From the NCBI GenBank assembly GCA_003971905.1, contig RSEE01000053.1, positions 310,001-374,000 of the forward strand: DNA of 64,000 nucleotides, given 5' to 3'. Each line of letters starts with the position of its first letter. The stretch's first letter is position 1. The stretch is from Moniliella sp. 'wahieum'. Lineage: Eukaryota. Positions 3,622 through 42,727 of this stretch are shown here, piece by piece. The notes beneath the pieces are model-generated. The model saw only the letters and a list, made by a program, of their open reading frames with translations. It did not search any database and was not told the DNA's origin. Position numbers and translations under genes: made by a program.

Positions 3622-4215
3622 TTGCCCTTCCTGTATTCTCTCGCATGCCACATCCCGTCCTCATTCCCTTTCTCCAACTGCTACCCGAACCACCCGACCT
3701 TTTCCTTGATCCACATCGATGTGGTCGACATTCCTCGCCAAGGTGGCGGGGGACACGGGTGGGGTTTAGTATCGTTGACGACTTCACCCGATACGTTTTC
3801 TTCCTTCCTCTTTCTTCCAAAGGTGAAGCCACTGCTCTCTCTTCGCCATTTTATTACCCGTGAGCAGCGTCAGCGCCCTGAAAGACCCCTCCAAGTGGTC
3901 CGCTCCGACAATGCTCCAGAATTGACCTCCGCTATGATCGATTTTTACGCCGCACAAGGTATCGTGACCGAAACCACCAATCCAGGTGAAAGTGCTTCAA
4001 ATGGTATTGCCGAACGAGCGATCCGGTCCATCATGGATCGTGCTCGCACTTTGCTCGCTTCTACTCGCCTGGATCCCGAAGATTGGTGGCAACATGCTCT
4101 TCACGCTGCGGCGTACACACACAACCTTGTGCCTCCGAAAGGTTGGGGGGGCAACAGCCGTTTTGTACGTTACCACGATTTCCCTCCCTTCCTATGCATG
4201 GTTTCGGTACCCTAG
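3622..4215 (+). CDS. Retrotransposon integrase core (frameshifted)
   Basis: DDE motifs: HIDV, RSDNAPE, NGIAERAIRSI; W..AL.AAAY..N. Confidence 0.9.
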   Translation: MPFLYSLACHIPSSFPFSNCYPNHPTFSLIHIDVVDIPRQGGGGHGWGLVSLTTSPDTFSSFLFLPKVKPLLSLRHFITREQRQRPERPLQVVRSDNAPELTSAMIDFYAAQGIVTETTNPGESASNGIAERAIRSIMDRARTLLASTRLDPEDWWQHALHAAAYTHNLVPPKGWGGNSRFVRYHDFPPFLCMVSVP

Positions 4216-4781
4216 CGTACCTTCACCTCTTTCCCAACCAGCGTGACGGAGGCAAGTTGGGTCCGCGGGCTGTTCCTGCCATGCTCATCGGATACGACGA
4301 GCGCCGTGGTAGTATGGGTTGGCTTTTTGCTCTGCATGGCGGCCCTGGCCTAGTTTACTATCGCTGGAAGAAACCGTTCAAGTGGACCAACCTGTCATAT
4401 ACTGCAGACACATTTCAACCTATTCCTTCTAACATTGTTTCTCCTCACGCGACCGGGGGGTTGAGGAGACACCCGACGCACGTTCCCCAAACCTTCCGAC
4501 TTTACCTGCTCCTCCTACTGTCGCCCATCCTACTCCTACCATTGTATCCCCACCTCCTACTGATGCCGTCCCTGTTCCTAACCAACAACAATCTGCGCTG
4601 TGTCGTAATCCCGGACGCCGAGCACGACTCCACGCCCTCCCCTTGATCTCTCTCACCCTGTTCCCGATAACCCCCAGGATCCATCTTTCATTCCCCTTGC
4701 TCTAAAGGTTCCCACCCTCTTTCATCCTCCTGTCTCACTTTCCACTCTTGACTTACCCACTTTGTCAACATCTTCGGTCCC

Positions 4782-5642
4782 ATGCCCAATACTTCCCTGA
4801 TCCCCGACTCGGACCGCACTCAACCTCCTCTTGCCCTTGCTCTCGACCACGCGCGAGACGAGGACGCACTCCTTCTTACCACCGATGGTGTTACCTTGGC
4901 GCCCAAGTCCGTCCGGGCTCTCGTCGGCCACCCTGCATTTGATGATGTCCTTGCTGCCATGCGCGTTGAACTGACGCGTTTCGATTCTCGCAAGGTGAAG
5001 GAGGTGGTGCCCATTCCTCCGGGGGCACGTGTGTTACCCGGTATTTGGGTCCTCAGTACCAAGACGGATGCTGAGGGTCGCTTTGTCAAGTATCGAGCGC
5101 GTTATGTCGTGGGAGGCCATCGCCAGCTTCCCGGATCCTGGACCAATAAGTCATTTGCTCCCGCGGTTCGCACCTCCGCCGTCAATACTTTGATCGCCGT
5201 CTCAGAGGCGGAAGGGCTCCAGCTCTTTACAGCCGACGTTGAGGCGGCGTACCTGTATGCGGACGTGACCGAAGAGGTCTATGTTAGGCCGCCTCCCTTT
5301 TTCCCAGAAGGGAAAGGCAAGTGTTGGAAACTGAAGAAGAGTCTTTATGGTCTCCATCAAAGTGGAGCGAATTTTGGTGATTGGCTGCGTACTCTCCTTT
5401 GTGACCGTCTTGGCTTTACCAGTCTCAAGTCGGAGCCTTGCCTCTTCATTCGTCGTACCCAATCCTTGGATCTCATTCTATTGGCCATCCACACTGACGA
5501 TTTTCTTGTTGCTTGCCGTTCGGGAGACATTTGCGATTCCTTCCTTGTTGAGCTTCGCAACCATATCGAAATTAAATCCAACGGCCCACTTCGTTTCCAT
5601 CTGGATGCCAGTACGACCGCATTGATGGACGCCTCTACGTGA
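4782..5642 (+). CDS. Copia reverse transcriptase (RVT_2), 3'-truncated or frameshifted
   Basis: WVLSTK...KYRARYVVGG, DVEAAYLYA, KKSLYGLHQSG, EPCLF, HTDD. Confidence 0.92.
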   Translation: MPNTSLIPDSDRTQPPLALALDHARDEDALLLTTDGVTLAPKSVRALVGHPAFDDVLAAMRVELTRFDSRKVKEVVPIPPGARVLPGIWVLSTKTDAEGRFVKYRARYVVGGHRQLPGSWTNKSFAPAVRTSAVNTLIAVSEAEGLQLFTADVEAAYLYADVTEEVYVRPPPFFPEGKGKCWKLKKSLYGLHQSGANFGDWLRTLLCDRLGFTSLKSEPCLFIRRTQSLDLILLAIHTDDFLVACRSGDICDSFLVELRNHIEIKSNGPLRFHLDASTTALMDAST

Positions 5643-31749: not shown

Positions 31750-32278
31750 TGTCGTGGACCCCGAGCACAGCAGAAGGTGAAGGTGGGAATGAGGGAGATG
31801 GAGCAGGGCAGTGACGCGATGACGGAGAAGGCTGCTGCCGTTGAAATCGCACCCCGTTCTTCTCCATCAGCGGGGGAGCTTGAAGCTCTTCAATTTCCAC
31901 GCCAAGCTTGGGCCCATCGTCGATTGGTTGATTGATCATCATCATCTCCGTCGCTAGAAACATTTCAACTTGTCTTCATTCGGCCTGTCACCGGTCACCC
32001 ATCATGCATCCACAAAACGAGAGGGGTGCTTCGGATGATCGATGAAGTGCGGCACGCTGCATGTCGTGTATACCCCACTCCCACTATAATTACAGGTGTA
32101 GTTGTTAGGTGCATACCAAGTAAAGCAGGAGAAAATGGCCAGCCTTGTAAATGTAAAAGAGGTAGCTCGGAAGAAACCATCACAGGCAAACGAAGAGAGG
32201 AGGAGGGAGGCTGGTCAGACCGGCAGGCCAGGTGACTTCAAAGAAGTGGTAATGAGTCCATGGACATTTAACGCATCC

Positions 32279-32362
32279 GTTCTATTAGCTCAGTTGGCTA
32301 GAGCGTCCGACTGTTAATTCACGGCCATCGGGAGGTCGTTGGTTCGAGCCCAACATGGAACG
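32279..32362 (+). tRNA. tRNA-Asn(GTT) with ~10-nt canonical intron
   Basis: Acceptor GTTCTAT/ATGGAAC, D arm GCTC/GAGC, anticodon stem TCCGA/TCGGG, loop CT-GTT-A, T arm GTTGG-TTCGAGC-CCAAC, followed by TTTTT. Confidence 0.93.
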
Positions 32363-32375
32363 TCTTTTTGTTACA

Positions 32376-32771
32376 CTAGAAGACCACCGGGCCTACGGCC
32401 CGGTCAGCTGGGGCTTCGCCCCAGCTGTGCTGCGTCGCCACCTTAGCCACCGGTCCGCCTTCGCCACCGTAGCCACCGTTCCCCCCCATCGTCACCTTAG
32501 CCACCGGTCCACCGTCGCCATCGTAGCCTCCATTCCACGCTGGAGGAATTTTATCACCCATGTGCATGGCTGAGCACGCGGGGGTGGGGTGCGCATTCCG
32601 CCCGCGCAAACAAATAGGTAAGCATGACGTAAAGAAAAAAGGGGGTCTGCGATATAAAAAGGGAGACATGTGCATGGCTGAGCACGCGGGGGTGGGGTGC
32701 GCATTCCGCCCGCGCAAACAAATAGGTAAGCATGACGTAAAGAAAAAAGGGGGTCTGCGATATAAGGGAGA
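32376..32771 (-). mobile_element. Non-autonomous Helitron-like element (~396 bp) with duplicated 5' terminus
   Basis: Minus strand begins A|TCTCCCTTATATC and ends with two perfect hairpins then GGTCTTCTAG|T. No target-site duplication. The same termini recur at 39986-40814. Confidence 0.8.
32559..32771. repeat. Direct tandem duplication, 108 bp + 105 bp
   Basis: 32559-32666 and 32667-32771 are identical except for three A's in the terminal A-run. Confidence 0.97.
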
Positions 32772-32953
32772 TTTGCCAAAGGTGCTCATGACAGGTGGCA
32801 ACACTTTCAATTAAAAAACAAAAACAAAATAAAACAACCCCCCCCCCCCATGCCTATGGCCCGCGTCCTGCCGACCCGAGTATGATCGTGTTGGCGGGAG
32901 AACAACACTGGCTGCCCAACCACGTGTGCCCGAACCCGACCACCAGGCCTACC

Positions 32954-35268
32954 ATGAACCGGCGAGGCACACGTCGCGGCCATCTCAGCACCAAAGTGCC
33001 TGGCGCCCGGAATCGCCCTGCCCCACCCCTCGCCACGACGATGACGAAGCGGACATGGCCGAGGAGCGAAGAGCGGTGCTGGTGGGGTCCGCGTCGGAGC
33101 CCGAGTCGGAGCCCGAGCCGGTGGCGGCTCCCAAACCTGCTGGTCCCCTGGCTGGTCTCATGATTGCCTTCACTGGCATCCCAGCTGCGGATAAGGCGGA
33201 GCTGGTGGAGCATGCCGAAGCGTTGGGTGCAAAGACCCAGCCTGATCTCACCATTGTCGCTACCCATCTTGTATCTCTTCAGGTGGGCAGCGCCAAATAC
33301 CGCCAGGCCATCCTGCATGGCATGACAGTGGTGGATCCCAAGTGGATTAAAGCTGTAAGGCTCCGCTGGGTCGAAGGACAAGAGTGCGACGCGCTGCGCA
33401 TGGCGGATGAGTACCCTCTGCGCCCTCTGCAGGGCCTTCGGACTGCATTAGTCACACAGGGTACGTCCCCTCCCACTCTCCAGTGCACCTGACTGACCAG
33501 CATCAGCGTCGGAGGATAATACACGGGTGCAGGCCAAGGTGGACAAAGTCAAATCGTTGGGGGCAGACTGCGTGGTGCTCAGGGGTGCCTCCTTACCTCC
33601 CAAGACGAGCCACGTCCTCTTTCTCGAATCCGAGGCAGGATACATCAAGACCATCACGAGCCAGCTGCGCGAGAGCGAGTCACAAGGTAGATCACAAGGC
33701 TCGCGCCGCAGTTCGATGGAACTCAAATTTGTCGACGCGGTTTGGGTGGAGGACTGCGAGCGTGCCAAATTATGCATAGGGGAAGAACTCTATGACCCGC
33801 TTCATCCACCCTCCGTTCAAGAAAGGCGGAAACACATGCAGTCGTATGCTACGTCCAGGAAGAAAGCACAGGAAAAGCTGCGCCAGGAACGGGCCCCGCA
33901 TGGACTAGGCCCGGATGGCCTCTTTCTCAAGAACAAGGAAACTTCATCCAAGCGAAGATTGGTGGACAGCATTGTGCAGGAACCATCGGCACCAGCGCGC
34001 AAGACTTCCCTCGAATCATCCAAGTGGGACGACGGGTTGCCTAGCAAGGGCAAAGAGAGTGATTCTTGGGCAGAGTCCGCGACGACTGTGGACACCAGTC
34101 CAATGACTTCCGCGCCGGTCGTTGACGGGCGTTTCCTCGAAGGAGTCAGGATACGAGTGGACGCCAAACTGGACGAGAAGAAGGAGGTGTTAAGCAGCCT
34201 AACTCGGATGGGTGCCCATCTTGCTCCCCTTGGGAGAAGGCGGAGTATACTATTGTTCCACTTAGCTATTCCCTCGATGGGACAGATAAGGATGGAACTC
34301 TGGTTACGCATCTGTGGTTGGAGGAGAGCGCAGCAGTGGGCCGCAAGGTGGATGTCAAGGATCAATTTTTTTATTCACCTACGCGGATACCCTTCCCTGT
34401 CCCTGGGGCTGAAGGGTGGTGCTCCATTCCACTGGCTTTCCCCTTGGAGGCGCTGTGCGACACAATATTGACACGATGGCCAAACGAATGGGGGTCAAGA
34501 TGACGCCTGCGTTCAGTCGGCTCAACACCCATCTCCTTGTGGGCGATGAGAACCCATCTCAGCCCAAGAAGGAAATGGCACGGCGGGTCGAAGCTCACGT
34601 GGTGGGCCTCGAGTTCCTCCAACGAATGTATGAAGAAGGTGTGATCAACCCATTACCGTTACCTCGCTTAGCACCCAAACGAGCCTCACAATCCAGCGCC
34701 TCGCAATTGGGCCCTTCCCAAATGCCCACGCCCACGGCTCTGCCATCAACGTTCGTTCCAGCGCGCTTGGCTCCCCTTCCACATCGTCCTGTGTCCGCCC
34801 CTGGCCCGACAGGATCTCAGCTTCGCCATGCCCTGCTCTCGGACGGCAAAGGGCGCCGGCGCACGCGCCCACCGACCTGGAGGCAGTCCACCTCGCCGCG
34901 CCCCATGATGGAAACCAAGACACGTTCGCTGCCGCTGCCGCCGCCGCCGCCGCTGCCCAATCCCAATCGAGAGCCCTCCCCGGAAGAGCAGCCTGCACAG
35001 ACCCAGGCAATCATGTCGTACGATGATCCCAACGAACGCAAAGAACGCGCACGACTTGACGCGCTGATGAATGGGGATGCGCGTGCTACAACACGGGGGG
35101 CTCTGGTCCCGCCGCTCCCCTCCAGCCGACAGCAGCGTGCCGCCCTCGGCTGGGACACGCACCCGGCGACGGGCACGACAGCAAGATAATGGAGACGGGG
35201 AAGTGGTGGACATCACCGCCTCACTACCCAAGCGACCGCGCAGACGGGTAGCTACCCCAAGAGACTGA
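32954..35268 (+). CDS. Multi-BRCT protein, Dpb11/Cut5/TopBP1-like
   Basis: N-terminus MNRRG...STKVP; BRCT PLAGLMIAFTG...LGA...THLV...SAKY...W; further BRCT-like repeats (LHSTGF...MGV..THLLV). Intron at ~33461-33531; frameshifts. Confidence 0.75.
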
Positions 35269-35999
35269 TGCGCCTTTGAAGTTATCCCCACTATGAGCAT
35301 GCTACGCCAACGAGTCTATTGTACTAGCGATTAATCAAGTGAAGTGATCCATGGTTTCCATTATTCGGGTCTGCTTTCAATAACGTCCACTTTCCCTGCC
35401 CACGAAGAAACCTGTCAGGGAAAAGGCGCTGGCTTCACTCCCTAAGGGGGAGGGGGTTGTCGCCCACCTATCGCACTTCAGCGCCCAGACGTGTTCCTCA
35501 ACACGGTCCTGGCCGGGTAGATGTTGTTGAAGGGCTTGCGAGTCAATTTAAACTAGTGGAATGCATGCGCCTGACCTAGTGGAATGTATCTCCTTCCCCG
35601 ACGGGAGACATCGCCGGTGGTGCCAGATAGCTGTGAGTATGGCGTTTGGACCTATAGGGGTCGGAGGTGCGAGTACGCGTAAGAATTTGGCTTATGTGTC
35701 CTGTAACGCAGCAGGGAAAAAAGACGATGGAGGCAGCATCTCGTACTGCCGGATGTCACAATAGTGCTAAGGCCTTTTCTCGACTCGCCCTGGACCGAGC
35801 AGTGCGCTTCCTCCATGACGGACTGAGCGAGTGGGGCAGGAACTTGAGCCGGGTCTATCTTGGTGCATGAGATTGGTCCGCGACTACAAACCCACAGGAC
35901 TGTCTGTCATAGCCGCTCCTCCCCAATAAACCACCATGCGTGCCCGCCTCTCGCTCTCAAAGAAGATGATCAACACACGACACGTAGATTTTGCCAAGC

Positions 36000-36387
36000 T
36001 TAGGCGGTTGTGTTGCGCAGCACTATCAGAACCAAGGTCAGCGATTGTGTCAGGGGAAAGAACGAGCCAACATACCCAAGACGACCGAGTCGCCGCGGAG
36101 GAACATCTTGGAGATAAAGCGGTCCTTATTGATCGGCTTACGGTTCTTGCCCCTAGGGGTCTCGGTCCACATCTCCTTGACGTTTTCGAGAACCATGTTG
36201 GAGTGGCGGTCAAAGGCCTTGACGCGGGCGAGGAGCTTTTTGTTGTTGCGGAGCGAGATGAGGATTTGTTGTTGCGCACACTCTGCTGCAGGACCGAGAG
36301 GGGGCCCTGGCTGATCTCGTACGCCTCCAGCTCGCGCAGCTGCGCCTCGTCCAGTTCGGAGCGTGGGACGTGGAGGTATTGGGACAT
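36000..36387 (-). CDS. SMD2: Small nuclear ribonucleoprotein Sm D2
   Basis: [48 protein letters not shown]...[21 protein letters not shown]. One frameshift and one intron. Confidence 0.96.
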
Positions 36388-36732
36388 GGTGGCGGCGCAG
36401 AGGTGGGGGCGTGTTGTGTGGCCTCCATCGGTAGACGCCTAGACGCCCGCGACGGGCGGAAGAATTTGGGTTTGTTTTATTTTTGGCTTCATTTTGGCTG
36501 CGACGGGATGTGATGCGGGTGTGATGGCATGCTCGGCACTTACAATGCGTGGCTCGTGGCATGGCCCAGTCAGCAGCCTGCCCCAAGCAGTGGGCATTGG
36601 AGATGGGTTCACTTTCCGCCCCTCCACTCGTTCCGCTGCCCAGCCCAGGAGTTTTCTTCTTTTTGCGCCCGCCCCTGGCGGTTGTCGGCTGCCAGCCACC
36701 ACCACCTGCTGTGAGTAAGTGTCGTCCGAAGC

Positions 36733-36858
36733 GTTGGATGATGACCAAGCCCCACGGGGCTGTGTCCGTTTACTTAGGAAGAGCCGTCGAAGCGGCGGGA
36801 ACATCACGCAAGCACGGCTGGTGTGCATGCCACCCCTTCCTCGCTCCCGACTGAGCAC
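36733..36858 (+). ncRNA. Box C/D snoRNA, U49/SNORD49-like, in a putative intron of a non-coding host transcript
   Basis: C box ATGATGA at 36738-36744 and D box CTGA at 36851-36854. TAGGAAGAGCCG (36775-36786) is the exact complement of the conserved LSU rRNA sequence CGGCUCUUCCUA. A GTGAGT donor lies at 36711. Confidence 0.7.
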
Positions 36859-37315
36859 TGTGACACGACGCTCCGCCCGCCTAGCCGAGGCCCTGGATGC
36901 CCAGCCCCACGCTCATTCAACTCCCCTATGGGGCTCTTTCTTCTACGGAGGATGGGGTTTGGTAGTGGGAGAGGGTTGTGCTGTTGTGGGCCGGGAGCAA
37001 AGGGAGGAAGCGGGGCAGGCGTTGAGCGTCGAGTCTGGTTTGGTCTGGGGCTTGAGGAGGGGGTGCCCGTGTACGCTTGGCTGACTTGTGTGCCCGTCCG
37101 CGAGGGCGAGAACAGGTCACTACTGAATTGCCACTTTTGTTTTTGCTCAAGCAAGGTTGCTAACTTTTCATGTCATGTGCAACAGACTGCGTTGACTCCC
37201 GACAAATGCATCGTTTGTCTGACTCGAAGCATTTTACGTTCTCATGTACCCGACAGCCCTATATCATGCAGCCAACAAAGTCTCTAGTTGGGATGAAGTG
37301 AATGCCCCCATAGAT

Positions 37316-39252
37316 TCAAGCCCAGAGCTTGATGCTCCCATCCCACGAGCCAGTAATGACTTGAGACGTTTCGTGCGGCAGCCAACAGTGGGAGATGACG
37401 ACGCGGTCATGCGCCTTGATGCGCTTGAGGATGCGGGTCGTTTTCCAATCCCAAAACACCAGGTTGCCTGCACCGTCGCCAGAGGAGACAAAGCGACCAT
37501 CAGGACTAAAGTTGACTTGGCACGCGTACCCGGCCACATTGTGCCCACGAAAGGACTTTTTGCGGTTCGCGCGGAACGTGTCGGCCGTGTAGATCAACAC
37601 TTGATTGTCGAGCGACTGGCAGGCCAGGTATTTGGCGGACGGGGATAGCGTAACAGCCGGCATAGAGTACATGGTGGGATCGGCAATGTACTTGATCACC
37701 ACGGGTATGTCCCACTCCCACGCACGCATCGTCTTATCGTCCGACGTGCTCACGAACCGTCGGTTCTGATCCACGAACGTAATGCTGTTGATCGCACCAA
37801 GATGCTGGTCGTACTCTTGGGTGATCTCACCAGACCGCAGATCGTATTGAATAATCTTCTTGTCGTTCATACCCGCGAGGAAACAGTGCTTCTCCTCCTC
37901 AGGATGGAAAGCGACGCAATAAGGTGTCTTGCCATTGGAAAAAGTCCGGATGGCCTGCCCAGTTTCCGTGTCCCAAAGTTTAATTTGCCGGTCATACGAG
38001 GCCGAGAGGAACTGGGTTCCAGACGGGCTGAACTCCGCCGTCCGGACCGCTTTGTTATGACCCATGAATGTACGCAACACCCGCCCATCATGGTACACGT
38101 CCCACAGCTTGACTTTGGTGTCCATACTTGCTGAGAGGAGGAGATGCCCACTTCGAGGAAAGAGTCGGACTGATGAGACACCTTTGGTGTGTCCCTTGAA
38201 CTCATGTACACACTCCTTGGGAAGGAAGCAAGTCTGATCCCCCGGATTCGAGAACAAATTGGAGTCCACGTCCGTCGGGACGGACATGTAGGTTCGGCCT
38301 TGGTAATCGTACATGGACTCGCCATGGAAGATGGAGCGTTCCTCCCCGGTGGTGCACCGGTCTTGGCTAGTGCTTTTTCTTCTTTTTGGGCTTGAAGTTT
38401 CTTCTCCGAAGCACGCAGCTCTTCCCTAGCCTTGGAAGCAGACAGCTGTTCTTCCGAAGGCCCTACCCCTTCCGTCAGGTTCACCTTCTCCCCCGCCCAG
38501 CCGGCCCAAGGACCCTGGTACGCCCCCTCCCCCTCGGTCACACTTGCGTCCCCTCCCTGTGCGCGATTCCTCTTAATGTCCCGTGACTTGGCCCGCATCT
38601 CCCCCCCGGCCAGACCGGCATTCCGATCGAGTGCCATACCACCCGAACCAGACGGGGTGCCGACAAATGCGCCCAGGTGGGCTGGGTCGTGAGCGTAGCC
38701 CTTAGTATCAAAGGTGCGCTGCTCATTGCGGAAGTCAATGGGCCGGAGGAACGCGGGCTCGACATGGCCGGTCCATACGTTCTGGCGTTTACGCATGATC
38801 TCTTCTTCCGTTGTTGCTTGGAGCGAGCGCGACAGCACCTCATACGGCAAGTTCACCAGCATCGCCGAGTCTTGCGGAGCGAGCGTGATTGCCTCATCCT
38901 GGGAAGGGGCAGCCTCGACTTCTGGGGCAGACGGGCGGACAAGTGCAGTAGGTGGCGAAGGCGCTTTCCGTTTGCGCTTATCCCTTGGAGCAGGAAAAGT
39001 GTTGGTGTGCGAAACACGATGCAAGCCAAAAGGGTCGTCGAGTGGGTTGACAGGGCCCAGGTCGTCGTCGTCGTTGACATTTTCATCGTCCTCCTCCTCT
39101 TGGGGGGCACTACTGCCCGGAACAGAATTGGCAGAAGAAAAGGTGTTACTGAATGTGCTCGGAGTGGGAAGGGAAGCGGCCGGGGCGGTGATGGTGGGGG
39201 CCTCCGTCTCGGATACCGAGTCGCTGTCGGACGCGTACCCAACCAACGACAT
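37316..39252 (-). CDS. PRP17: Pre-mRNA splicing factor Prp17/Cdc40 (WD40)
   Basis: MSLVGYASDSD, Y.GPWAGW, YDYQGRTYM, GHTKGVS..RLFPRSGHLLLSASMD, QEYDQHLGAIN, SWDGSIKLW. Frameshift near 38340. Confidence 0.95.
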
Positions 39253-39985
39253 GGTTGGGCCTCACCAAACAACCACTGGGCGATGCCCGAGTTATGAACG
39301 GGGCGGAATAGGGCGCGGCCACGATGTGCATATTCCGCCGGGGGGAAATTTTAAGGCCTGAGGGCCCCGAGGCTAAGAACGACTGCTAATACAGAGACAC
39401 TTTCCATACTCCATTTCGACTTGGTTCACTGCCCCGGATTGATTGCATCTCCCTGCCACAGCCGAAAAGAGGAAGAGGCGTCAACGCTCAGTCTTCTCCA
39501 AGGGTACGCAGGATGGCATCGTGAGTATGAGGGGGATGCTGGGAGTCAAAAGTGCATTTTCCTGTGTCTAGTCTCGCTTGTCCTCATGAGAATGAAAGGA
39601 GGTTGTCGAGTATACTAGCCTAGTACTAACATCCCCGACTCTCATCGATTGTTAAAATATAGTTCTACTGACCTTCCTTCATCCTCAACCACGGCGCTCC
39701 AAACACTCCTTACTGTCCAGACAACGAGGGTGGCTATTGCCTAGGTGTAGGCTGGGACGGAGTTGGCAACTCAATCTCTTGACTTACCCACAGGAGGCCA
39801 GGTCCGTGGCCTGGCGCTTGTGAAATACACCCCCTCTTCCTAGTAGACATTCCTACTAGCAGACAGTTCTTTCGGCCTTTCCACCTGGTCCGTACCCAAC
39901 TGACAGTGAAATCCTCCACAAGTTCCAGCACTGTGACCATGGTCCTGGCAGTTCTTGCCGCATGCACACATGCAATTATACACAA

Positions 39986-40814
39986 CTAGAAGACCACCGG
40001 GCCTACGGCCCGGTCAGCTGGGGCCTCGCCCCAGCTTGGTACTTGGTCGCCACCTTAGCCACCGTTCCGCCGGGGTGTCATGTCCTCGCTGGAGCACATC
40101 ATGTCTTGCACCCGCACCCAGGCCAAGTTTAGTGCGTTGCATGAGGCAGTGAGGGAGCCCATTCTCCAGCTCATACGCTCCATCCCCGACACTCACGTCC
40201 GCAACGAACCTATGGTGGAGGACGAGGATGGGACGAGGCGCGGACCGAGGGCACAGCGCACCGACTACCGCGTGATGGGGCCTGGAGCACTGGGAGGATC
40301 AGGAATGGAGGTCGACCACACGCTGCGCGACACGGGAACGCAAGAGGCGCAGAGCGCGTACCGGCGGGTGGTGCAGAGCACTGCGTCGCCTTTGGAACGC
40401 TGGGAGAAGGAACTGCTTCGGCTGCTTGAACAAGCAGAATGCGACAAGAACGCCAAGTACCAGGGACGCACTCAAGAGCCGTTTTTCCCCCTGGTTTTGA
40501 CGACGCGAGGATACTACGGCACCAAGACAGCGGGCAAGTTGTTTGCGCATTGGAAGGAGTTGGCTACTAAGTCTCAGTGGAAATGGTTCCTCGCTCGGAT
40601 GTCAACCACGTTCATCCGTGTCCACACGCGCTTCCTAGGGTACGGGACCGGATGGCGAGAACCGGAGGGTCCTGATATCCTGGCGATCCCTCTGGTTCCT
40701 TGACCTTAGTGGCGCTTTCAAGTAACCCCCGCAAGATGAACGGTTCGGTTCAGACGTAGCGTTCCCCCTGTCCCAGCCTTAAGCTCAGTCAATAATATGG
40801 ATTCAAAAGGGAGA
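39986..40814 (-). mobile_element. Helitron-ended element (~829 bp) containing a non-LTR retroelement endonuclease ORF
   Basis: The first ~85 bp are near-identical to the start of the 32376 element (CTAG plus twin hairpins). The other end, AAAAGGGAGA|T, matches that element's 5' terminus. A|T insertion site. Confidence 0.75.
40080..40703 (+). CDS. Restriction-like (PD-(D/E)XK) endonuclease domain of a CRE/Cnl1/MoTeR-type non-LTR retrotransposon
   Basis: Ordered motifs recognised by eye: H-x3-C (EHIMSC), LH (RH position), EP, RTD, EVD, E.DK..KY, PFFPLVLTTRG. ATG start, 207 aa, no interruption. Confidence 0.78.
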   Translation: MSSLEHIMSCTRTQAKFSALHEAVREPILQLIRSIPDTHVRNEPMVEDEDGTRRGPRAQRTDYRVMGPGALGGSGMEVDHTLRDTGTQEAQSAYRRVVQSTASPLERWEKELLRLLEQAECDKNAKYQGRTQEPFFPLVLTTRGYYGTKTAGKLFAHWKELATKSQWKWFLARMSTTFIRVHTRFLGYGTGWREPEGPDILAIPLVP

Positions 40815-40863
40815 TTGAGGAGCTTGGATCACATACTTGGGGAAAAGTCGCGCAAGCCGTGCG

Positions 40864-42727
40864 TTAGGAGGCACAATACTTGCTACTGGCGCGAACGCGA
40901 TCTCCGATTCGATAAAGAACAAAAGGGATGGGGATCTAGAGCCAGTTAGTTCACATCGCAATTACCGAAGCTGAAGGGGGAGCTGCGCACCATCAATACG
41001 TTGAGTCCGGCGAGGAATAGTGACCCTCCCACGGGCTGCATTCGCCTAAACATCTGCCCAACTGTCAGTAATGCCAGCGAAACGATAGAAGTATGTACGC
41101 ACTGGGATAGCGAAGAGGGGCATGGCGGTACTGAAGATACAACGGACGCAAGTATTGCAAGCCATGGCAGATGCTGCAACGGGACGGAAAGCTTCCCCAG
41201 TGTAAGCGAAAATGGACATGAAGCAAAGAATGACCCCCGTTCCAAATGGCAAGATGGAAATGATAGGGGCCACCCAATGGACCGACTTAAAGGTAGTCAA
41301 GCCAAATACGACCAAGCCCACCACCGTCAAGATTGCCCCAAGCATACTGGGGAATAGACGTTCTTCTGGGGGAGGACTTCCGTCATACTTTTCCAATGCC
41401 CGCCTGTACCTCTTATTCCAATACGGAATTGAACAAACTGCCAGTATCCCCTACAAGGATACCAGAGAATGACTTGAGGATGATGTCAGTATCTCGCATC
41501 ACCAGGTCAAAGAAGGTGCGACACGTACGAGGCCCGACTGCCAATCGTTGAAGTTGTGTTTAGTGCGCATGGTAAAGGGGAGCGCCTCAAAGAGCAAGTA
41601 CACGATACCGAGAAGAAGTGCCGACCAAGCACATAACAGGGAAAGCATCAACTCGGTTGCAAGGAGCACGGGAATCCTTCGCATGAACTGCAAAACGACC
41701 TGCGTCTTGTTTTTACTTCCCACATCTAGTTCCATTTGAGACACCCACGCGGGGTCGTTGGTTTCGCGGCGGAGACGCTGAGCACGACGCGTCAGGATAA
41801 GAGGGTGGTAGGTTTCTTGATAGAAGAAGATAAGCCCAATGACAAGAATGAAAGACCAAATGATGATTGGAAAGTAAGTCCAACGGAAACCGCCAGTGAA
41901 CTGGTTGGCAAAGCCAGAGTATATTGGACCTAGAATAGGACCTAGAAACGGGCTGGAGAGTAAGTTAGTTTTAGGAGGGGCAGAGAACATTAGAGTACAT
42001 ACCCAACAGTAAACAAAGACATGGGGACAAACAATTCCTCCCGAGGAAAGAGGTCAGTGCATGTGGCCCCAGCAACACTGAGGAAGGCACTAGCGGAAAA
42101 TGCAGACAGAAATCGGAAGATGATAAGAACAGCGATATTGTTGGCGAAGGCAACGGGGAAGTTGAGGAGGAAGAAAGCCCCCAAGGAAATAATGTAGATG
42201 GGCCGTCGCCCGTAGAACTCCGAAAGCGGGGAAAAGATGGCAGGTCCCAAGCCAAAGCCAAGGACGAACCTAGTCAAACACACGTTACGTTAGTGTCACT
42301 GCATACCTTCAAAATAGGGTACTCACAAGGCGACAGTCAGAATTGCGACTTCTTGCCCCACATGAAACTTTTCTTGGACGTGGCCATAGCTAAGAGCAGC
42401 GGCACTACTGCAAGTAGTGGCGACCAGCGCGGCTTGGATAACAAGGAGGAGGAGAAAGAAGCGGCGAGTTCCCCATGTCATGGGGTTTTCCGGGTCCGCA
42501 AGGGGGTCAGGCAACGATTCTACGAGGTCGGCATCTGAGTAAACACCCCAGCCGACCAACTTGCGCTTTTGCGTGTCGCATGCGTCATCGACGGGGTTGA
42601 GGTCAGGAATCGTGCTGGCTGACCGTTCATCAATCGGCTTTTCTCCTTGTGGGCCGGGGCGGTATTGGATGGTGGATGCATCGAGCTGGTCGTCCGCGGC
42701 CAAGTTGGCAACCGTTGCGAATGCCAT
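40864..42727 (-). CDS. MFS drug:H+ antiporter (DHA1 family) transporter
   Basis: DPENPMTW, FSPLSEFYGRRPIY, FLGPILGPI, ETYHPLIL..RA.RLR.ET, PPEERL, ASAMA.NT..R, IPFVLY..G.R.RA.SKY. Several introns. Confidence 0.92.

Follow-up and report, generated by a model that had tools for sequence, protein, structure and literature searches.

The locus described here is made of parts that are already known kinds, namely an R2/CRE-like non-LTR retrotransposon encoding a restriction-like endonuclease (RLE), and a Helibat-like Helitron with TC and CTAG ends. RLE elements are usually sequence-specific, and in fungi the non-LTR elements that encode an RLE have been assigned to the CRE clade, exemplified by CRE1/2, SLACS, Cnl1, MoTeR, and FoTeR. 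In the R2 proteins of solved structure (8gh6, 8ibw-8ibz, 9dou, 9nl2, and 9nl3), a reverse transcriptase (RT) is followed by a linker, a CCHC zinc knuckle, and a nuclease of the PD-(D/E)XK type at the extreme C-terminus. For CRE, SLACS, and MoTeR, a pattern termed REL has been published, C-x1-3-C-x7-8-H-x3-4-C-x9-10-RH[D/N]-x19-33-E-x9-21-[R/K]PD-x12-14-[D/E] (PMC12857005, in the accessible part of that paper).

On the other side stand the rolling-circle transposons. Helitrons are known capturers of gene fragments. Helibat and Helraiser, as well as their non-autonomous kin, are described in the available excerpts as having a 5'-TC and a CTAG-3' terminus and a palindrome 11 nt from the 3' end; they insert between A and T and create no duplication. 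Helraiser, the one Helitron studied by experiment, cannot do without its left terminal sequence; the determinants of cleavage are confined to the terminal 40 bp, and the 3' hairpin acts as a terminator (PMC4778049, accessible sections). Helentrons, which encode RepHel fused to an APE endonuclease of CR1 non-LTR origin, resemble the present locus in that a piece of non-LTR endonuclease lies inside a rolling-circle transposon (PMC4067079, accessible sections). They differ from it in several respects, since here the nuclease is an RLE and not an APE, is antisense and unfused to RepHel, and sits in a tiny non-autonomous element with no sign of use. In the titles and abstract openings of the papers listed as joining 'Helitron' and 'restriction-like endonuclease', no such pairing is described.

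The locus studied here is most likely ordinary transposon-in-transposon debris rather than a new mobile nuclease gene. It lies in a stretch of 64,000 nt, hereafter the window, of Moniliella sp. 'wahieum' (GCA_003971905.1, contig RSEE01000053.1, positions 310,001-374,000, forward strand), with a G+C content of 58%. The genes of the window form a fungal-looking housekeeping set, ordinary eukaryotic in character, and include a WD40-repeat protein, an MFS transporter, an EFTUD2-like GTPase, hexokinase, TruB, prephenate dehydratase, and an intron-bearing tRNA; Rfam found nothing beyond tRNA in 32000-41500. A Ty1/copia-type LTR retrotransposon remnant is also present, at about 3990-5640 on the plus strand, with RVT_2 at 4752-5639 (E 1.2e-36) and a retroviral SH3-like match, below threshold, at 3990-4643; its ORFs fall in several frames and it is probably degraded. 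Four sequencing runs were listed, two of which contain part of the stretch (shares 0.21 and 0.06), with no RNA run among those listed. The 829-bp unit of interest (39986-40814) is intergenic, flanked by the WD40 gene on one side and by the 3' end of the MFS gene on the other. Its features and those of its surroundings are given below, where X1 (a metagenome containing a relative) and X2 are sources of matching contigs.

32279-32362: intron-bearing tRNA gene (Rfam and ARAGORN)
32376-32771, minus strand: 'empty' 396-bp Helitron-type reference copy, of the same family by its shared ends
37316-39261, minus strand: WD40-repeat gene, its 5' side facing the 829-bp unit
39986-40071, minus strand: Helitron-type 3' terminal 86 bp, non-autonomous; the terminal CTAG occupies plus-strand positions 39986-39989 and, on the Helitron strand, abuts T
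40072-40073, no strand: junction, 2 bases of neither partner; Helitron homology extends to 40071 and the retroelement frame runs from 40074
40074-40703, plus strand: 3' part of a 5'-truncated non-LTR retrotransposon ORF, with the second half of the CCHC knuckle, a complete RLE (PD-(D/E)XK-type) core, and the natural stop
40704-40804, plus strand: presumed retroelement 3' UTR, about 101 bp, contiguous with the ORF; the X2 and X1 contigs reach at least 40757
40805-40814, minus strand: Helitron-type 5' terminus TCTCCCTTTT, matching the 5' ends at 32764-32771 and 32659-32666
41046-41396, minus strand: MFS transporter gene, its 3' end facing the 829-bp unit

The termini of the unit can be compared directly with those of the 396-bp element. 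At the 3' end, 39986-40071 is 91.9% identical to 32376-32459 over 86 columns (E 9e-30, blastn within the window), and reading by eye shows that the outermost 39 nt are the same in both. On the minus strand, both copies start with TCTCCC... and end with ...TCTTCTAG, that is, with the 5'-TC and 3'-CTRR termini of a Helitron. The 10-mer GGTCTTCTAG, which forms the minus-strand 3' end of both elements, is present exactly twice in the window, at these two places alone. Two hairpins follow one another at this end, the first (39997-40013) with a 7-bp stem 11 nt from the terminus and the second (40016-40036) with a 9-bp stem. Together they are predicted to fold, as DNA, at -27.5 kcal/mol (z -3.85, a value equalled by 0 of 200 shuffles), and they provide the GC-rich hairpin at 10-12 nt that is looked for in Helitrons.

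The 5' end is much shorter. What all three copies of it have in common is TCTCCCTT alone, with TCTCCCTTTT being common to the 829-bp unit and the inner 5'-end copy of the 32376-32771 element. The 8-mer TCTCCCTT occurs 8 times in the window against 2.33 expected, a count reached by 0 of 100 shuffles, and 3 of these 8 are the ends in question. The candidate Helitron 5' end is thus recognized from 8-10 bases, and its run of four A (40805-40808) could equally be assigned to a short A tail of the retroelement. The interiors of the two elements show no further similarity (blastn, word size 7). Their flanks read ...ACACAA|CTAG...GGGAGA|TTGAGG for the 829-bp unit and ...GTTACA|CTAG...GGGAGA|TTTGCC for the 396-bp element. 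In the Helitron orientation, both window copies therefore have the form A|TC...CTAG|T, with target duplication absent and insertion between A and T as in other Helitrons; in the 829-bp unit, the plus-strand T after 40814 is the A before TC on the Helitron strand. An X1 contig supplies one more 3' half-site, also against the expected base, and in the same metagenome a Helitron 3' end of the 32376 type stands beside a different flank (loose end at 39983).

On all these points the initial annotation was accurate: it had stated that the 829-bp segment and the 32376-32771 element share both ends, here delimited to 86 bp at the 3' end (92%) and 8-10 bases at the 5' end, that twin hairpins mark the 3' end, and that insertion took place at an A|T site without duplication, which is true of both window elements. 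It had also suggested looking for an autonomous RepHel element with these ends; within the window, none of the 55 ORFs scanned encodes RepHel. Searches with a 28-nt Helitron end gave 0 matches in each of the metagenome, prokaryote-genome, and viral contig collections, the latter two being long shots for a eukaryotic repeat. The family is thus like Helibat and Helraiser in its termini, palindrome position, and insertion preference, and unlike them in having twin hairpins instead of one, in the lack of RepHel in the window, and in the 8-10 nt of 5' end that the unit shares with its relative.

The 'empty' copy itself lies 13 bp downstream of the tRNA gene. Within it, a stretch of 105/108 bp is duplicated in tandem (97.2% identical); each of the two repeats ends in the family 5' terminus, and the element accordingly has two 5' ends and one 3' end, with the retroelement at neither 5' end. 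Its middle is made of degenerate GCCACC-type short repeats. Directly downstream of it comes a run of about 12 C (32838-32849), preceded by an A-rich stretch; the run is placed just upstream of a BRCT-domain ORF (32833-33489). In the X1 contig at 39983, the family 3' end is preceded by sequence like the interior of the 396-bp element (about 32535-32560), which suggests that one Helitron has inserted, at an A|T site, into another member of the same family.

The interior of the 829-bp unit is occupied by an ATG-started ORF of 207 aa (40080-40703, plus strand), antisense to the Helitron, in a frame that is open from 40059. As 59 stop-to-stop ORFs of at least 200 aa exist in the window, it is homology and not length that makes this ORF real. 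Pfam assigned it to no family, the sole sub-threshold match being a chance one (Gluconate_2-dh3, E 0.022). Its closest relative in a word-indexed search is P0001, a protein of 279 aa from a 1174-bp contig, with 80-81% identity; P0001 extends 70 aa further toward the N-terminus, past CKCG and through a C-x-C...H-x3-C knuckle. A word-based search returned no longer relatives of P0001, whereas an exhaustive search did yield them, and 38 proteins (P0001-P0038) were found at E<=1e-3 by phmmer among 1.84 billion cluster representatives. When P0001 was compared with metagenome contigs, 12 pattern matches were obtained and 0 were confirmed. Many of the 38 representatives are short C-terminal fragments, an observation consistent with frequent 5' truncation.

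The long homologues (949-1301 aa) show what the ORF derives from. The matched region is their extreme C-terminus, ending within about 20 residues of it. RVT_1 was detected above the Pfam cut-off in 7 of the 14 homologues scanned among the 38, and in 10 of the 14 at E<=1e-3 (4 had no family); in homologues carrying both, it is always upstream of the matched region. The family thus has the RT-plus-C-terminal-RLE arrangement, and the window copy is without RT. Its linker/CCHC/RLE region is recognized by no Pfam model. The solved proteins nearest to the RT of P0012 are R2 (8gh6_A, E 2.2e-7), then LINE-1 ORF2p. In the ESM Atlas, a full-length relative falls with RVT_1 clusters; the nearest clusters are unnamed, with one weak lead to zf-RVT (score 0.90, 42% of members). 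A cluster look-up returned no names. When 41 family proteins were compared with the window by tblastn, every one of the 34 HSPs fell at the 829-bp unit, which is therefore the one locus of this retroelement in the window. These homologies identify the 207-aa ORF as the C-terminal portion, with the RLE, of a protein encoded by a non-LTR retrotransposon.

Structure prediction leads to the same assignment. The AlphaFold model of P0001 (pLDDT 86.3, pTM 0.84) had R2 proteins as all 7 of its top Foldseek matches (E 3e-6 to 1.6e-3, the next at 0.089). With VIA-align, R2 gave Z 12.8-14.8 over 215-221 residues (rmsd 3.7-5.0), the next tier being at Z 6.6, and the part of R2Bm aligned, residues 858-1107 of 1114, comprises the linker, the CCHC knuckle, and the RLE. 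The model of the window ORF (pLDDT 83.1) retrieved the same 7 R2 chains first, with Z 9.1-10.0 over 148-158 residues and rmsd 3.5-4.3 (8gh6_A 942-1107), followed by PD-(D/E)XK cap-snatching endonucleases at Z<=7.6. Both models thus adopt an R2-like fold of the PD-(D/E)XK type, and R2 chains are the sole strong structural matches. By contrast, the structural-alignment identity with R2 is 12-23%, and no PDB chain is matched by sequence profile: the RLE-region profile of the family gave only a chance match among PDB sequences (E 4.9), and P0003 gave nothing. Further differences from R2 are that no rDNA target is found here and that the window copy has no RT and misses half of the knuckle.

In P0001 numbering, conservation across the family falls on C66, C68, H76, C80, R90-H91-E92, E113-P114, R130-T131-D132, E148-x-D150, K195...Y199, and F207-x-P209. 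Of these, the window ORF lacks C66 and C68 and, like P0001, has Leu in place of R90; all the others are present. D132 (38/38), D150 (38/38), and K195 (39/39) are invariant, are all present in the window ORF, and from the order of the motifs are putative catalytic residues. The knuckle is well conserved in the family (C66 in 32 of 33, C68 in 31 of 33, H76 and C80 in 34 of 35 each); the window ORF has H76 and C80 only, the two Cys columns lying 5' of the break, and hence no CCHC knuckle of its own. The order CCHC, R-H-(D/N/E), E, R-x-D, D/E is shared with the CRE clade, from which the family departs by having RHE in place of RHD/N and RTD in place of R/KPD, and by the greater length of its last spacer; in addition, no telomere repeat is found at the junctions of the 829-bp unit. 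The strict REL pattern is found in 0 of 42 family sequences and a loosened version in 7 of 42; removal of the two leading Cys from the loosened version raises this to 13 of 42, the window ORF among them. For these reasons (strict 0/42, loosened 7/42), the ORF is best filed as the RLE of an R2/CRE-like non-LTR element, with no claim of CRE-clade membership.

Most of what the initial annotation had said of the ORF agrees with these results. It had described an uninterrupted, ATG-started 207-aa frame followed by about 100 bp of 3'-UTR-like sequence (about 101 bp after the stop by our coordinates), which begins in the middle of a zinc knuckle and encodes an RLE. Homology and fold bear out the RLE identification, the two N-terminal Cys columns do lie upstream of the break, the motif order listed corresponds to the conserved columns of the family, and the Foldseek comparison that it had recommended puts R2 chains first for the P0001 model. 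Its likening of the ORF to CRE/Cnl1/MoTeR-type elements holds for the order of the motifs and fails for the strict published pattern.

The beginning of the retroelement copy can be placed precisely. From 40074 the frame reads Gly-Val-Met, as in P0001, so that no more than 2 nt separate the break from the last base of Helitron homology. An X1 contig covering 40077-40233 has 54 letters further upstream, which encode the ...SMCKCG of P0001. Because the contig of this relative continues 5' of 40077 into retroelement coding sequence, comparison of the sequences identifies the window copy as a retroelement truncated at its 5' end (about 40073). It follows that the first two knuckle Cys are missing through this truncation and, since both P0001 and the X1 contig code upstream of it, that the ATG at 40080 encodes a Met from within the retroelement protein. 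At the other end, residues 1-206 of the window ORF align with residues 71-278 of the 279 of P0001, and the natural stop has therefore been kept. The 40704-40804 segment is unlike the 396-bp Helitron and ends with ...AATAATATGGATTC, after which comes AAAAGGGAGA.

Other contigs complete this picture. X1 also has retroelement contigs of their own, apart from its Helitron ends; since each occurs alone there, the Helitron and retroelement families exist separately in a relative. Among the 34 differences listed between the ORF and the X2 contig (there are 53 further ones), 20 fall at third, 9 at first, and 5 at second codon positions, an excess at third positions that is as expected for a retroelement lineage under coding constraint. 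One X2 contig ceases to match at 40492, upstream of which it has 140 unlike letters, and this may be another 5' truncation or else divergence (about 81% likeness). Among the X1 and X2 pieces listed, none spans the insertion site or the 40071-40074 junction. Contig depth, when summed, increases along the ORF from about 12 to about 70, a measure unfit to rank gene parts and not used as evidence.

How the two elements came together is a separate question. On balance, the locus probably arose when a dead, 5'-truncated retroelement copy landed in a resident non-autonomous Helitron, the interior of which was lost. A short Helitron-type element, mobilized by RepHel acting in trans, would first have inserted between A 39985 and T 40815. 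Later, the cDNA of an RLE-type (R2/CRE-like) non-LTR retrotransposon would have been built into this resident Helitron, with target-primed reverse transcription or the repair of a break by a cDNA patch as possible routes. Priming may have occurred where the A-rich 3' end of the RNA could pair with the T-run of the Helitron strand (TCTCCCTTTT^), 6-10 nt from the 5' end of that strand; such priming of an A tail on a T-run is a conjecture. Copying would have stopped early, inside the CCHC codons, and the cDNA would have been attached to the Helitron at a point 86 bp short of the Helitron 3' terminus, with loss of the interior between. The 207-codon ORF would then be the still-open tail of an RT-RLE gene, started at an internal Met, and no gene in its own right.

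As to the order of events, parsimony favours nesting in place over a composite that has moved, because the copy is 5'-truncated with an intact 3' part, its A-run sits on a T-run of the target strand, and its 5' junction is abrupt. 5' truncation is typical of non-LTR insertions, and these three features are the usual marks of dead-on-arrival copies. If the resident copy resembled the 396-bp one, nesting requires that about 300 bp of Helitron interior were lost; target deletions can accompany non-LTR insertions. No clear microhomology is seen at the 5' junction (40071-40074), and there is no target duplication at the unit. Without RT, linker, and half of the zinc knuckle, the 207-aa fragment is probably inactive; as its ORF is fully open and every core residue is kept, some residual activity or expression is possible. 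The composite itself is probably immobile, because at most 10 bp of 5' end are left, to be set against the need of the experimentally tested Helitron. Between the two readings proposed by the initial annotation, (a) a Helitron with a captured nuclease as cargo and (b) a retroelement inserted in a Helitron, the evidence therefore leans to (b), given the internal-Met ORF and the 5' truncation revealed by X1. The description of the ORF as a stand-alone nuclease is not supported by these results.

The first alternative is that a Helitron at another place acquired the fragment, through retroposition, filler-DNA repair, or transduction, and that the composite then reached the present A|T site by rolling-circle transposition, carrying an RT-free RLE ORF. 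This is in fact reading (b) with one more transposition added at the end, a step of which no evidence is seen. Both histories predict the same local structure and thus differ solely in whether the composite ever moved. Capture accords with the known habit of Helitrons noted above. It also accords with the intact ORF, with the 39 terminal 3' nucleotides identical to those of the other copy, and with the canonical outer ends (TC...CTAG, hairpin at 11 nt, A|T site, no duplication), but such ends are expected just as much from insertion in situ. A parallel exists in Helentrons, whose APE nuclease is thought to stem from a non-LTR element retroposed into a Helitron, or to have been transduced (PMC4067079, accessible sections). 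However, no second copy of the composite was seen in the window, in the protein-relative search, or in scans of metagenome contigs, and the ORF, which is antisense and lacks half of its knuckle, begins at an internal Met of the parent protein. Moreover, the 10 bp of family 5' end fall well short of what Helraiser needs, namely its left terminal sequence, with determinants within 40 bp (PMC4778049, accessible sections). We thus regard an earlier life of the composite as mobile cargo as unlikely.

A special case of insertion in place is that the retroelement is sequence-specific for the T-run by the 5' end of this Helitron family, so that the junction AAAAGGGAGA would be recurrent. The usual specificity of RLE elements and the position of the 3' junction, 6-10 nt from the Helitron 5' end, speak for it, and the insertion of Tx1 into Tx1d is a precedent for a non-LTR element targeting a DNA transposon (PMC6719617, accessible part). 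Against it, a single junction is available, and the two 5' ends of the other Helitron copy in the window are both unoccupied, which makes such targeting quite improbable. Taken jointly, the claim that either a Helitron carries an RT-free RLE ORF or a retroelement family homes to the 5' end of a Helitron family is doubtful.

Very improbable, finally, is the absence of any complete Helitron, with 40805-40814 matching by chance and the 86-bp end being either co-inserted with the cDNA (for example by template switching) or a broken remnant: the match is short and TCTCCCTT is found at 5 other places in the window, but it ends exactly at the expected A|TC boundary, has the strand that is required, and is no more than about 100 bp from the ORF stop, and the 86-bp piece stops exactly at the family terminal CTAG, beside the expected T. 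Insertion of a Helitron into a pre-existing retroelement was also considered and rejected, there being no sequence of the retroelement left of 39986, and the 86-bp 'Helitron' that this implies would have no TC 5' end.

Read as a retroelement nested in a resident Helitron, the locus is a well-delimited case of a transposon within a transposon. In annotation, the proper treatment of the 207-aa ORF is to mask it as the remnant of a retroelement instead of calling it a gene. The locus documents an RLE-type non-LTR family whose nuclease region escapes every Pfam model, as well as a Helitron-type family with twin 3' hairpins. Should the composite prove to be multi-copy, it would be a direct example of a rolling-circle element gaining a retroelement nuclease, the route proposed for Helentrons (PMC4067079, accessible sections). 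If it did move as cargo, it would show in the present day the kind of step by which Helentrons are proposed to have gained their APE nuclease. If instead the retroelement targets the Helitron, it would be an RLE element with a rolling-circle transposon as its 'safe harbour', and the locus would then be of greater interest.
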